Part shown: positions 20,408 through 25,552 of the stretch, one piece after another
Layout: each line of letters opens with the position of its first letter
Numbering within the stretch: the first letter of the stretch is position 1
Origin: a bacterium
GTDB taxonomy: Bacteria > Bacteroidota > Ignavibacteria > Palsa-1295
Length of the DNA stretch: 64,000 bases
NCBI GenBank assembly: GCA_037143335.1
Contig: JBAWZA010000010.1
Location: forward strand, 25,326 to 89,325
Reading direction: 5' to 3'
Position numbers and translations under genes: made by a program
The notes under the pieces: generated by a model
What the model was told of the DNA's origin: nothing
Database searches by the model: none
What the model saw: only the letters and a program-made list of their open reading frames with translations

Positions 20408-20440
20408 CCGCCCACGATTTCAATCGTGGGCGGGATTGAT
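20408..20440. repeat. REP-like GC-rich palindromic element, copy A
   Basis: CCGCCCACG-atttcaat-CGTGGGCGG-GATTGAT. Same element as at 25421..25454 (inverted) and 25523..25552. Confidence 0.55.
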
Positions 20441-20551
20441 AATCGCAGAGAGCCCCACTATATTCCCGCGCTCGCGGAATGACGACGCAGAAAGGGAAAG
20501 AAGAGGGGGAGCATAAAAAAACTATTAGAAGATTTTTTTGTTAATTAAAAA

Positions 20552-20941
20552 ATGGAAAGTAATTTAACCCCTGGTGCAGAGACGTCTAAACTACGTTTTT
20601 TTCTTGATGGGAACGCTGGCCTTACGAAGTCTCATAGAAAAGCACGGAAAGAAATTGCAAAAGTTCTTGCCGAATTCGGAATAAATGTAACTAGTTTACC
20701 AAGTCAAAGAACATTTGATTCATCAGAAATGACTCAATGGGAATATTGTAAAAAAGAAGGAAGAGTAATGATAACCCATAATTCAAATTATCTTCGTATT
20801 GCAGAAAAGGATTTGAATCATCCGGGACTTATTCATTGCAAAATAGAAATGCATTTCGCTGGCGAAATTGTTCTCGGCATATCTGAACTTTATAATGAAT
20901 TATCCCCTGGCGAAATGCGGGGGAAAATTCTTTATATGTAA
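20552..20941 (+). CDS. DUF5615-like PIN-fold (Mut7-C-like) putative nuclease/toxin, orphan
   Basis: 129 aa. RFFLDGN near the N-terminus matches the F-L-x-D-E-N start of DUF5615. EGRVMITHNSNY and NHPGLIHCKIE blocks follow. No DUF433 partner upstream. Confidence 0.45.
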   Translation: MESNLTPGAETSKLRFFLDGNAGLTKSHRKARKEIAKVLAEFGINVTSLPSQRTFDSSEMTQWEYCKKEGRVMITHNSNYLRIAEKDLNHPGLIHCKIEMHFAGEIVLGISELYNELSPGEMRGKILYM

Positions 20942-21203
20942 TTGCTTATAAGAAATTCAGGCGCACTCGAACGAAGATGCACAACTGCGAACGACGAGAG
21001 GGGAATTATTCCCTTCTCTTTTTTCTCAATTCCCTATCATATTGAATCGCTTCAAATTGTTTGGATGATATTAGTCGATCAATGTCAGAAAAAAAATCAT
21101 TTTCTACAATTTGTTTTTGTCTAAGGGACATTGACTTATTTATTTTCTCGATGTGTTCAGCGCGATCATTTAACCACCATGGAAAATTTTCGGGGATAAT
21201 GTA

Positions 21204-21890
21204 TTATTTTCCCTGAATTTTTAATGATCCTTGCATATCAATTTTCGAACCTTCCCAAGGGTTATGTCTTGATGTGAAACCCAGCAAGACAATACCGCAC
21301 ATATTTAAATATATGAATCCTTCTTTCTTTGTACTCCCAAAAGTAAAATCTGTTGATCTCATTAAATAATTATTAATGTTATCGGCGGTCTCAATGGAAC
21401 CAGTGGATTCAATACCGCCCATCAATACCATATGTTGTTCTGTCATCCCAATATCATTTCTTTCTCCTAGCAAAAATTGACGCCACGTTTTTTCAGCTAA
21501 CCTCAATTTCTGAGCATGGAAAAGAGATAACCCTTTATGCCCATTTTCTTTTTTCATCATCGTAAGGATTCTCCAGGTTACTGAAGTCGCAAATTTTAGC
21601 AGCCATTCGCCATACTCAACATCTTGATTATCGTGATTTTGGTAAGGATAGAAAACTTTTTCAGCGTATTTTTTTTCGGACCTTCCAAAAAGTTGTTCGC
21701 AGTCGAAACAGAGTAAGTAGTCTTTGTACCCGTCTTGTGCCCTTTGATTAATTGCCCGAGAATGTCTAAGATAACCAGTAGCTGAAGTTTTTTTTTGCCA
21801 TAGGTTAATAAATTTGGGAATGATATGGCTCTCCTGAAGTTCTTTAACCTCTCGACAAAGTGCACATGTTCCAATATTTTCTTTTGCCAT
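21204..21890 (-). CDS. HNH-motif endonuclease-like protein with an uncharacterised 150-aa C-terminal domain
   Basis: N-terminal CALCREVKELQESHIIPKF...N...DYLLCFDCEQ matches the CxxC-[D/E]HIIP-N-LLCxxC HNH pattern. The remainder has no recognisable motif. ORF-track start 21923; the MAKEN Met at 21890 is preferred. Confidence 0.45.
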   Translation of the reverse strand: MAKENIGTCALCREVKELQESHIIPKFINLWQKKTSATGYLRHSRAINQRAQDGYKDYLLCFDCEQLFGRSEKKYAEKVFYPYQNHDNQDVEYGEWLLKFATSVTWRILTMMKKENGHKGLSLFHAQKLRLAEKTWRQFLLGERNDIGMTEQHMVLMGGIESTGSIETADNINNYLMRSTDFTFGSTKKEGFIYLNMCGIVLLGFTSRHNPWEGSKIDMQGSLKIQGK

Positions 21891-21930
21891 ATTTCGATAA
21901 CCCCTGAAACTCCTACCCCCCATTTTACGT

Positions 21931-21957
21931 TTAGCACTCCCACTAAATGAGTGCTAA
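21931..21957. promoter_or_regulatory. CIRCE operator (HrcA binding site) for groES-groEL
   Basis: Exact TTAGCACTC-N9-GAGTGCTAA, about 80 bp upstream of the groES ATG. Confidence 0.85.
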
Positions 21958-22037
21958 CTTTCAACCCTGAAATTGGGCTGGGAGTTCTCAGAAAACGATG
22001 AAATTTTGATTTTTTTCACCAATAATTACGACATAAC

Positions 22038-22337
22038 ATGAATCTAACACCATTACATGACCGCCTCATCGTCCGGGCTGCTGCTGCGGCGGAGGTCACT
22101 AAGGGAGGAATTATCCTTCCCGATACAGCTCAGGAAAAGCCACAGCAGGGCGAAGTTCTTGCTGTCGGAACCGGCAAAATTGACGACAACGGCAAGACAT
22201 TGCCGATGGCAGTGAAGGTCGGCGATACCGTCCTTTACGGAAAATACTCAGGCACCGAAATCTCAGTTGATGGAGAAGAAGTTCTCATCATGAGAGAGTC
22301 GGATGTTTTTGCAATCGTAGGGAAAGGGAAGAAGTAG
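22038..22337 (+). CDS. groES: co-chaperonin GroES
   Basis: 99 aa. LHDRLIVR...[22 protein letters not shown]. Confidence 0.95.
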
Positions 22338-22428
22338 TCGTTAGTCGTTAGTCTCTAGTCGTTAGCAGATTGTGGTTTTTAGCTTTGGCATTTTTCTGCT
22401 AAAGACTAACGACTAAAGTCTAACGACT
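22338..22428 (+). repeat. long imperfect inverted repeat made of GTCGTTAG / CTAACGAC tandem units in the groES-groEL spacer
   Basis: Left arm TCGTTAGTCGTTAGTCTCTAGTCGTTAGCAG. Right arm CTGCTAAAGACTAACGACTAAAGTCTAACGAC. Roughly 30-bp stem with about 27-nt loop. Confidence 0.55.
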
Positions 22429-22495
22429 TTCAGAAACTACTGACGCTCTGATAAAAACAAAATTTACACAAAAAAAATTAACATAAGATAAGAAC

Positions 22496-24139: not shown

Positions 24140-24179
24140 GCTAACGAATAGACGTTCAGAGATGTATTGACGCATAGAA

Positions 24180-24207
24180 AGCCGGCTCAAGGGAGCCGGC
24201 TTTTATT
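24180..24207 (+). terminator. rho-independent terminator after groEL
   Basis: AGCCGGCTC-aaggg-GAGCCGGCT followed by TTTTATTT. Confidence 0.7.
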
Positions 24208-24249
24208 TGTCGTATTTTTGTAATAAATGATAAGTTAATAATCTTTCAT

Positions 24250-24804
24250 ATGAGAAAATATTTTTCCATTTTTCTATGTGTTTTATTTTCGAGTTGTGCA
24301 ACGACGCGACTAAATTCAGTTCATACTGGAAATCATTCTACCTATATGAAAATTCTCGTATTTGCTGATTATGAAGATATTGGACAACGCAAAAACTACG
24401 AACAGGCACTTTTAGAGGAATTGTCAGATAAAGGAGTTCAAATTTTTATGAGCATTGATTATTTTCCCCCGTTAAAAGAATATACCGACCAAGAGAGAGA
24501 AGCAAATAAAATTAGCCTTGGCTATACAGCTGTTTTATTTCTTGAGCCAAAAGGAAGTAATACATCCACTCATTCGGAAGCTTACAGGAATTGGTTTGGT
24601 GGAGTTTCTGCTGATACTCATGAAAGCCTCGACGGCGTGTATACCATTGCCACTCTTACTGACTTAACTTCAAAGGAACATGTCTATAAAGCTACAATCT
24701 ATACTTCACTGGACAGCAGATATACACAGATGAACGAAGTTAGAAGCTCGATGGCAAAAAAAATTGCCGACGATATGTCTGATAACGGATTTTTCAATAA
24801 ATAG
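24250..24804 (+). CDS. hypothetical lipoprotein
   Basis: Signal peptide plus lipobox LFSSC. 184 aa. AT-rich codon usage. Confidence 0.45.
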   Translation: MRKYFSIFLCVLFSSCATTRLNSVHTGNHSTYMKILVFADYEDIGQRKNYEQALLEELSDKGVQIFMSIDYFPPLKEYTDQEREANKISLGYTAVLFLEPKGSNTSTHSEAYRNWFGGVSADTHESLDGVYTIATLTDLTSKEHVYKATIYTSLDSRYTQMNEVRSSMAKKIADDMSDNGFFNK

Positions 24805-24809
24805 CAAAC

Positions 24810-25322
24810 ATGTGTAGTATTGATTGGGCAGCCACAGGTGCTATGCTTGGAGGTATCGCGACTGCGATTTATGCGCTCTTCACTTTATTTCTTTGGCTAA
24901 CTGCAAAAAAAGATTTAGATCAGACGAAAAAATTGCACCTCGCAGATTCAAGACCTTGGCTTGAAGCACAACTTATAGCTGTAAAGTATAGAGGAGTTGA
25001 TCCTCTGGATTATATGCAGTCTGGAGTACAAGTAATGGCCTATAATCATGGTAAAAGTCCTGCGAGAATTGTTTCATGGCAAGTTGGATGGTCCGATGAC
25101 GGAATAAATAAATTTTGGTCACCCAGATCTAAGCAAACTGTTATCATGCCACATTCTTCAATGGATGAAGTTTTTCCAGTTACTGAGATTCGGGCAAATG
25201 AAAGGCGTTTGTATATAGTTAACCTCACTTACCATTCAGGGGCAAGCGAGAATTATGTAACAACTGTAGAATACATTTATCACCTCCGAACATGGGAGCA
25301 AGGTGCTGTTATATACACATAG
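24810..25322 (+). CDS. hypothetical membrane-anchored protein
   Basis: 170 aa. One N-terminal TM helix. Lies 5 nt after the previous gene, so likely co-transcribed. Confidence 0.4.
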   Translation: MCSIDWAATGAMLGGIATAIYALFTLFLWLTAKKDLDQTKKLHLADSRPWLEAQLIAVKYRGVDPLDYMQSGVQVMAYNHGKSPARIVSWQVGWSDDGINKFWSPRSKQTVIMPHSSMDEVFPVTEIRANERRLYIVNLTYHSGASENYVTTVEYIYHLRTWEQGAVIYT

Positions 25323-25420
25323 TTTAGAACAATTTTCATACCCTTTTCTCCATTCTCAATTTTCTATTCTCACTTCCGCCACCAACGCGCGGCGCGGGCA
25401 TCGGCGGGCAAGGGAGCGGC

Positions 25421-25454
25421 AATTATCAAACCCGCCCACGGTTGAAACCGTGGG
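25421..25454. repeat. REP-like palindromic element, copy B (inverted orientation)
   Basis: ATTATCAAACCCGCCCACGG-ttgaaa-CCGTGGGC. Its reverse complement reads GCCCACGGTTTCAACCGTGGGCGGGTTTGATAAT, nearly identical to copy A. Confidence 0.55.
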
Positions 25455-25522
25455 CTAATATGTTTTCATCGGTTTCACCGATTCGGGGAATAAGAGTCGC
25501 CTTTGGCGACGGCAACAGATTA

Positions 25523-25552
25523 GCCCACCAATTCATTGGTGGGCGGGATTCG
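25523..25552. repeat. REP-like palindromic element, copy C
   Basis: GCCCACC-aattcatt-GGTGGGC-GGGATT. Shares the GTGGGCGGGATT 12-mer with copy A. Stem base pairs are compensatory (CACG/CGTG versus CACC/GGTG). Confidence 0.5.

Follow-up and report, generated by a model that had tools for sequence, protein, structure and literature searches.

Three short palindromes near the groESL operon in a 64,000-nucleotide stretch of metagenomic DNA (hereafter the window) are probably copies of a miniature, non-autonomous mobile element, of the repetitive extragenic palindromic (REP) or REP doublet forming hairpins (REPIN) kind or similar to a miniature inverted-repeat transposable element (MITE), that a Y1 transposase mobilises in trans. 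Two of them, copies B and C, are a complete pair and the third, copy A, is a decayed single hairpin. In relatives, the same elements form a family with a common two-hairpin structure, occur as dimers and arrays, and are closely associated with IS200-type Y1 genes. The best explanation of the window elements within Rfam is that they belong, as divergent members, to the family Acido-Lenti-1 (RF01687). The source of the DNA is a Kapabacteria-like metagenome bacterium; 71%-identical homologues of the window's methyltransferase are labelled Candidatus Kapabacteria and Ignavibacteriota, and several proteins of the contig carry type IX secretion tails.

Three copies and the repeat family to which they belong

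The original prediction had placed three REP-like copies of roughly 35 bp, in both orientations, around groESL. All three were recovered with the core pattern GCCCAC-N3-TTCA-N3-GTGGGC followed by GGG(A/T)TT, at 20408-20446, 25419-25455 and 25519-25552 of the window. A search with CCCAC-N10-GTGGGCGGG, allowing at most two mismatches, gave four window matches compared to 0.12 expected, a number that none of 100 shuffles reached; copy A is counted twice among the four because it matches on both strands. The unit itself proved to be larger than predicted, a module of about 56-66 nt in which two hairpins (H1 and H2) are joined by a conserved 12-nt linker. In the Rfam orientation the module reads H1 (GCCCAC-N3-TGAA-N3-GTGGGC, a 9-bp GC-rich stem), linker CTAATnTGTTnC and a short, variable H2, and the usual unit is a head-to-head pair, H1-linker-H2, spacer, H2-linker-H1, with H2 on the inside and H1 at the outer ends. 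The parts of the window copies are as follows (window coordinates; strands in the Rfam orientation).

20395..20446, minus: copy A, a truncated singleton with the second hairpin missing
20395-20407: partial linker of copy A, abutting and overlapping the TAG stop of a SnoaL-like gene
20408-20433: H1 of copy A, 11-bp stem CCGCCCACGAT/ATCGTGGGCGG, loop TTCA on the plus strand
ending at 20446: subfamily tail of copy A, GATTGATAATCGC
25419..25485, plus: copy B, a complete module, with its tail at 25419-25433
25434-25455: H1 of copy B, GCCCACGGT-TGAA-ACCGTGGGC
25456-25467: linker of copy B, TAATATGTTTTC
25468-25482: H2 of copy B, ATCGGT-TTC-ACCGAT
25483..25495, no strand: 13-nt spacer TCGGGGAATAAGA, separating the two H2 hairpins of the head-to-head pair
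25493..25559, minus: copy C, a complete module
25496-25510: H2 of copy C, read on the plus strand as GTCGCC-TTT-GGCGAC
25511-25522: linker of copy C, read on the plus strand as GGCAACAGATTA
25523-25544: H1 of copy C, read on the plus strand as GCCCACCAA-TTCA-TTGGTGGGC
to 25559: tail of copy C, read on the plus strand as GGGATTCGGGAATTG

The near-identity of copy A to the reverse complement of copy B held up (89% complementary over 37 nt), as did the compensatory nature of the changes in copy C, which keeps the GCCCAC/GTGGGC outer stem, the GGGATT and the TTCA loop while its inner stem is changed on both sides, from GAT/ATC to CAA/TTG. The further small hairpins that had been seen nearby (25468-25482 and 25496-25510) are present but are not separate features, being the H2 hairpins of B and C. 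Together these two copies make up one head-to-head pair, an imperfect palindrome of about 140 nt (25419-25559), which folds as single-stranded DNA at -37.5 kcal/mol (z -6.2) with the H1 arms paired to each other and the H2 hairpins folded locally. All copies are intergenic, as predicted: A begins 12 nt past the stop codon of the SnoaL-like gene, and a 287-nt spacer (25323-25609) contains both B and C. The background, at 44% G+C, is not strongly AT-rich as had been supposed.

The family extends well beyond this contig. When one genome per GTDB species was scanned with the loose pattern, 60 loci matched; the majority were canonical terminators, coding sequence or chance hits in genomes rich in G+C. 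Seven of the 60 matched the window copies in the loop and in both flanks; they came from Candidatus Kapaibacterium metagenome-assembled genomes (MAGs), on three, two and one contigs in three MAGs, and from one Calditrichota MAG, while an Ignavibacteria MAG locus with a TTAA loop and other flanks (L015) is only a possible member. About 20 further loci were found in a metagenome scan. Copies also occur on Joint Genome Institute (JGI) metagenome contigs, and dozens are present in public genomes and metagenomes altogether. In relatives, one MAG has copies on 3 separate contigs and two others have them on 2 each. A scan of viral contigs gave three single-hairpin matches and no two-hairpin module, and an association with phages was rejected on that ground.

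We built a covariance model (R1) on 12 copies, and it recovered more copies in the fetched loci. Copies B and C score 79.4 and 77.3 bits by construction, as both are seed members; copy A, which is not in the seed, was found at 20395-20435 (minus) with 38.5 bits (E 5e-8), the H2 positions being deleted. In an alignment of 38 copies, 98.5% of cells were paired and 10 of 14 pairs had double-sided changes, compared to 22-47% of cells paired when the structures were slid by 1-3 columns as a control. The outer H1 pairs do not vary, in part as a consequence of the search patterns, which demanded them; H2 was absent from every search pattern, and all five of its pairs covary. The loop, the 12-nt single-stranded linker, the second hairpin and the tail are conserved across phyla.

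Head-to-head pairs occur at about half of the element-bearing loci. Besides B/C they are found at L008, L013, L050, L067 (three pairs), L068, L073, L077, L081, L086 and L094 (two), and in arrays of five at L095 and four at L096; pair spacers at other loci measure 5-45 nt. An unpaired head stands 5' of the hairpin; most copies have ATAG or TTAG there and some (L066, L068, L070, L086) have GTAG, positions 3-4 of the tetranucleotide being conserved and positions 1-2 not. We also considered a closing stem between an upstream AATCCC and the downstream GGGATT, which would make a three-way junction; it was rejected, since few copies have it and the junction of inverted pairs explains it.

Y1 transposase genes in relatives and the likeness to known mobile repeats

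IS200-type Y1 transposase genes adjoin the elements at four independent loci (L039, L080, L094 and L095/L096). The link was tested in both directions, by an element-based search that yielded L039 and L080 and by a protein search with the L039 Y1 that yielded L094 and L095/L096. At L039, in the Kapabacteria MAG SMAG_U739, a Y1_Tnp gene of 161-166 aa (PF01797, 98 bits) lies between inverted copies, one 20 nt upstream of the gene and the other overlapping its stop codon, the TAG of which is the head of the element. The Y1 of L080 is a homologue of that of L039 (54% identical) and lies between two inverted copies of a variant subfamily, with a GCCCAC-type copy also present. L094 (P0127), from the same MAG as L039, has a 59%-identical Y1 paralogue with a complete pair on either side of the gene. 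In L095 and L096 (P0133), from two Bacteroidota MAGs, a tandem array with a 153-nt period comes after the Y1 gene and runs up to the CIRCE (controlling inverted repeat of chaperone expression) operator and groES; it comprises five head-to-head pairs in L095 and four in L096. The flanking genes of these two arrays (L095 3485-4210, L096 3485-4057) are identical and the arrays differ by exactly one 153-nt unit, which could be true copy-number variation or an assembly collapse of the tandem repeat. In another relative, a Y1_Tnp gene adjoins MiaB in a region syntenic with the window.

The neighbouring open reading frames (ORFs) of about 166-172 aa were considered as a possible hidden associated gene, and this candidate was rejected: only those of L039 and L080 are homologous to each other, and both are the Y1. 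The 170-aa ORF of the window belongs to no family and has two homologues only. As a separate observation, the L080 Y1 appears to lack an in-frame ATG for its conserved N-terminal part (2860-2935, minus strand); YQHFVFSTKNR is in frame and the upstream ATG is in another frame, which may reflect a frameshift, a pseudogene or a sequencing error.

The prediction that this is a REP- or bacterial interspersed mosaic element (BIME)-type family was well supported by its recurrence on many MAG contigs, its inverted dimers and tandem clusters, and its position on the flanks of Y1 genes. REP, BIME and REPIN elements with REP-associated tyrosine transposases (RAYTs) are described from E. coli and Pseudomonas (PMC3116915, PMC3337134, PMC3733652, PMC5581495); two of these papers (PMC3733652; PMC3337134) describe REPs that are clustered or paired head to head, and Y1 genes that lie between REPs or between long inverted repeats, which are in some cases double-palindromic. 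Our elements likewise are short, intergenic palindromes rich in G+C; compensatory stem changes set their subfamilies apart, and head-to-head dimers and tandem clusters predominate. Their unpaired head, (A/T/G)TAG and mostly ATAG or TTAG, may correspond to the GTAG of REPs, and a Y1 gene of the histidine-hydrophobic-histidine (HUH) class lies between inverted repeats, here in relatives only and not in the 82-kb neighbourhood of the window. They differ from REPs, which have one hairpin, in the two hairpins and the conserved linker, and the enzyme differs from RAYTs in being IS200-like, with a YIxNQ..HH motif.

A second likeness is to the TIRtrons and TIRYTs of Di Nocera et al. 2013 (PMC3733652), Y1 genes between long inverted repeats of which some are 'double palindromic'. 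That paper describes them in Acidobacteria, Koribacter versatilis among them, where copies of the repeats occur singly, as dimers and in clusters and make up families of moderate abundance. The double-hairpin form is common to both, and Koribacter versatilis also supplies many Acido-Lenti-1 seed sequences, although identity of the families is not confirmed. TIRYT proteins (e.g. aba 1552, PMC3733652) have RAYT-like Y..NP motifs, which the Kapabacteria proteins do not.

By profile the transposase is a member of the IS200/IS605 family (model NF033573, 73.8 bits against a cut-off of 55), and its nearest solved structures in the PDB are the TnpA proteins of ISDra2 and IS608 only, with no E. coli RAYT among them; a BLASTP comparison with the E. 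coli RAYT is marginal (E 0.02 over 52 residues). The hairpin-tnpA-hairpin unit of L039, at 586 bp, is also of IS200 size. The elements depart from IS200/IS605 in that the flanking copies are mutually inverted in L039, L080 and L094, and in that non-coding pairs far outnumber gene-bearing units, L094 having complete pairs on both sides. The system works like REPIN-RAYT, yet its enzyme lies outside the RAYT clade and its ends are not directly oriented as in IS200/IS605, and the proposal of a RAYT-type transposase target stands as to the presence of Y1 (HUH) genes at four loci and falls as to the enzyme, which is of IS200 type and not a canonical RAYT.

In the IS200/IS605 family, subterminal hairpins are recognised on single-stranded DNA. 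By analogy with IS200/IS605 TnpA and with RAYT-REP systems, trans-mobilisation here would likewise take place on single-stranded DNA: the Y1 enzyme would recognise the hairpins on transiently single-stranded DNA and would cut and rejoin beside them, copying or moving pairs in trans. Tandem arrays might then expand and contract through recombination. In the lineage of the window, the transposase may be elsewhere in the genome or may have been lost, and if adjacent transcripts are affected at all, through 3'-end protection, a weak terminator or a promoter fragment, this would be a secondary matter.

Several observations weigh against mobilisation of this kind. The region scanned around the copies covered window positions -8623..73095, 81.7 kb of the same contig (ENA ERZ4222710 NODE_76, 111.6 kb; window position w corresponds to record position 86254 - w). 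A hairpin scan and the covariance model found no fourth copy in it, so that further copies, which the original prediction had proposed to look for, number zero in the contig covered; just three are present in the 81.7 kb, all inside 5.2 kb, and abundance genome-wide is thus unproven. Nor was a Y1 gene or remnant found in the 82 kb around the window by phmmer with the E. coli RAYT (a sequence that agrees with Additional file 5 of PMC3733652) or by tblastn with three Kapabacteria/Bacteroidota Y1 proteins, and the proposed search for a RAYT gene therefore came up empty. The Y1 proteins of the relatives fail the RAYT model NF047646 (REP_Tyr_transpos), with 16-18 bits against a cut-off of 80. The orientation of the copies to Y1 varies, H2 being nearest the gene in L039 and H1 in L080 and L094. 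Classical IS200/IS605 end hairpins are directly oriented, not inverted. No transposition event, target duplication or empty site was alignable (in L092 and L093 there is no alignable intergenic DNA), and the Rfam curators class the motif as a probable small RNA (sRNA).

The Acido-Lenti-1 match and rival explanations

An E-value-threshold Rfam scan matched RF01687 to copy C (30.1 bits, E 3.1e-5, 25495-25543, minus) and to copy B (27.5 bits, E 1.6e-4, 25435-25466, plus), both under the gathering score of 37 bits; in gathering mode, the scan of the window returned two tRNAs only. Relatives exceed the gathering score at L080 (43.1 and 42.8 bits, the two copies that flank its Y1 gene), L070 (41.5), L071 (39.6) and L085 (38.1), all of them obtained with the window's own pattern or from beside the L080 transposase. 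With B and C under that score and relatives over it, the window copies are divergent relatives and not members by the curated cut-off. The cmscan alignments of C and B span model positions 1-46, and both copies follow the RF01687 plan, in which a hairpin with a stem of about 8 bp and a 4-nt loop leads, through a linker of about 12 nt that starts with CUA, to a 5-bp hairpin and a U; copy A matches this plan in the first hairpin and part of the linker only.

The architecture is the same throughout, and the Koribacter subset of the Acido-Lenti-1 seed is nearly the same in sequence as well, reading CCCACC-N-CUNAC-N-GGUGGG CUAUUUCAUUNC GUCGC-UGCG-CGAC U, against CCCACCAAUGAAUUGGUGGG CUAAUCUGUUGCC GUCGCCAAAGGCGAC U for copy C on the minus strand. 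In Lentisphaera the motif is multi-copy, clustered and in alternating orientations on NZ_ABCK01000016, and the seed coordinates of RF01687 show tandem arrays with periods of 69-200 nt. The window copies differ in a linker at least 1 nt longer, a longer H2 and a Kapabacteria-like host of the Fibrobacteres-Chlorobi-Bacteroidetes (FCB) group (Bacteroidota/Ignavibacteriota) instead of Acidobacteria or Lentisphaerae, and Rfam annotates the sRNA on the opposite strand. Weinberg et al. 2010 (PMC2864571) described the motif from Acidobacteria and Lentisphaerae, rated it 'probably RNA' on covariation, noted that it is sometimes near group II introns and reported no transposase link.

The Rfam reading, in which the elements are genes or parts of a structured non-coding RNA and Acido-Lenti-1 is a trans-acting sRNA, would account for the RF01687 matches (E 3e-5 and 1.6e-4), for the relatives that pass the gathering score, and for the strong covariation on which the published rating rests, but we consider it unlikely. 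Because pairing is head to head, one partner of each inverted pair is always antisense, and such partners make up half of the copies; the orientation of the copies to the flanking genes is arbitrary, and copies occur in every orientation relative to neighbouring genes, which is also the outcome of the strand-bias check that had been suggested. G-U pairs occupy only 2 of 481 cells in the family copies, and because they are almost absent both strands stay palindromic. The published seed (PMC2864571, supplementary file 183) holds 38 A-C mismatches against 8 G-U among 910 cells, a count uncorrected for shared ancestry, and this excess places any wobble pairing on the strand opposite to the Rfam annotation. 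That strand reads (A/T/G)TAG followed by the hairpin, as in GTAG-type REPs, which suggests that RF01687 is annotated on the wrong strand, if single-strand folding occurs at all. Moreover, copies that pass the gathering score flank a transposase gene in inverted orientation, the copy number of the tandem array varies between near-identical MAGs, and there is no consistent promoter or terminator signal at the copies. Pairs, arbitrary orientation, scarce G-U and the wobble strand of the seed argue that selection acts on the DNA.

It is still less probable that the hairpins are host-selected terminators or 3'-end stabilisers, alike only in the way that good GC hairpins are. Copy A does start 12 nt past a stop codon, a simple terminator scan lists copy B owing to a T-rich stretch after it, and the loose pattern also picks up many unrelated database sequences that are canonical terminators (CCCGCCCAC...GTGGGCGGGTTTT). 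However, no copy has a proper T-tract, the tails being GGGATTGATAAT, TAATATG and GGGATTCGGG, and copy B is antisense to its upstream gene. Textbook terminators with A and T runs are found elsewhere in the window, at 24178-24203 (after groEL), 8068, 42713 and 55307; as these are the ordinary terminators of the organism, the elements are a different thing, and we rejected the canonical intrinsic terminator on the missing T-tract together with these true examples. The loop, linker, second hairpin and tail are conserved across phyla. A terminator role as a side effect could be compatible with mobility.

Highly improbable is a 5-kb composite mobile unit (20408-25455) carrying groESL and four small genes, with A and B as its terminal inverted repeats: the 37-nt arms, 89% complementary, do enclose 4972 bp with their tails inward, and gene order left of the methyltransferase does differ in relatives, with B/C at a synteny breakpoint, but the shared TTGATAAT-like tail characterises a subfamily and recurs in L067, L081 and L095, the SnoaL-groES-groEL order is conserved in L095/L096 with the elements arranged otherwise, there is no transposase inside, and groESL, a core operon, has a CIRCE operator of its own. 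The composite transposon was accordingly rejected, and a REP/REPIN-like element mobilised by Y1 remains our preferred explanation. What stands of the suggestion that the copies bracket groESL is that at least one close relative carries the family between SnoaL and groES.

The groESL neighbourhood, other palindromes and significance

The relative in question is that of L095/L096, where the order is SnoaL, two small ORFs, Y1, array, CIRCE, groES and groEL, and where identity to the window is 97% for GroEL, 93% for GroES and 50% for SnoaL. In the window the order is SnoaL, copy A, two small ORFs and a minus-strand ORF, CIRCE, groES and groEL. This shared context indicates that the SnoaL-groES spacer holds the family in at least the L095/L096 relative; that of the window has kept only a degenerate singleton, copy A. 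At the other end, a relative with an 81%-identical 170-aa ORF has 37 nt and a different gene at the position of B/C, and a relative with a 79%-identical methyltransferase has other left neighbours and no element. In two relatives, groESL and the 170-aa ORF are not adjacent to the methyltransferase. Gene order shifts exactly at the spacer 25323-25609 (compared to L092 3786-3821 and the P0005 contig), which places B/C at a rearrangement breakpoint.

A perfect CIRCE operator (TTAGCACTC-N9-GAGTGCTAA) is found at 21931-21957, 80 nt upstream of groES, and CIRCE also precedes groES in L095 (4259-4285). groESL is thereby under ordinary HrcA control, unrelated to the repeats, and a role of the repeats as the groESL operator was rejected, the HrcA operator being a separate perfect site.

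Further features of this neighbourhood were seen in passing. The tail of copy A gives TTGATA, with TATATT 17 nt downstream (20436-20464), the best sigma-70-like match of the region (10/12), 88 nt upstream of the ORF at 20552; its significance is doubtful, since the scan covered sigma-70-type sites only and the promoters of the host may be of another type. The groES-groEL spacer is unusually long at 158 nt (130 nt in L095 and 160 nt in L092) and contains an imperfect palindrome (22335-22425) with TAGTCGT/ACGACTA heptamer repeats. A tRNA-Asn(GTT) gene (19660-19734) lies 125 nt upstream of the SnoaL-like gene, near the variable SnoaL-groES region.

Other palindromes of the window are of a different make. 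One of 109 nt (26450-26558) stands between the convergent methyltransferase and miaB genes, each of its 45-nt arms consisting of four CTCCGTG/CACGGAG heptamers spaced 10-14 nt from start to start. A half-copy lies on the other side of miaB at 28112-28149 (79% over 38 nt), and the contig with P0006 of a relative has a Y1_Tnp gene in the spacer equivalent to that site. The palindrome and its half-copy may be a second, unrelated repeat family; an exact-spacing search for the CTCCGTG/CACGGAG pattern found nothing further in the window. A perfect 13-bp GC-rich hairpin at 35931-35962 (CCTACCGCCTGCA-aaaaaa-TGCAGGCGGTAGG), without a T run and unlike the GCCCAC family, sits in a 54-nt gap between two minus-strand genes.

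For the annotation of the window, the three palindromes are to be labelled REP/REPIN-like repeats and not groESL regulators. Such repeats break metagenome assemblies, mark rearrangement breakpoints, as B/C does, and mimic terminators or sRNA genes. The element family was already known, in Rfam, as Acido-Lenti-1, and what is useful beyond the window is that a family listed as 'sRNA' appears to be mobile DNA: an orphan Rfam motif of no known function is now tied to a Y1 transposase and to REPIN-like dimers, which suggests that Acido-Lenti-1 merits re-examination as mobile DNA. The chances seem to us evenly balanced that Acido-Lenti-1 as a whole is not an sRNA but a widespread REPIN-like mobile DNA, kept by an IS200-type Y1 transposase that has a fixed chromosomal site beside groESL in the lineage of the window, with a range that takes in Acidobacteria, Lentisphaerae, Planctomycetes, Kapabacteria-like FCB bacteria (Bacteroidota/Ignavibacteriota) and Calditrichota. 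Our results also suggest that REPIN-type systems reach Kapabacteria-like FCB bacteria with an IS200-type rather than a RAYT-type enzyme. If the mobile-DNA reading of Acido-Lenti-1 is true, it would be an independent, non-proteobacterial partnership of REPINs and a transposase, with an enzyme from outside the RAYT clade.

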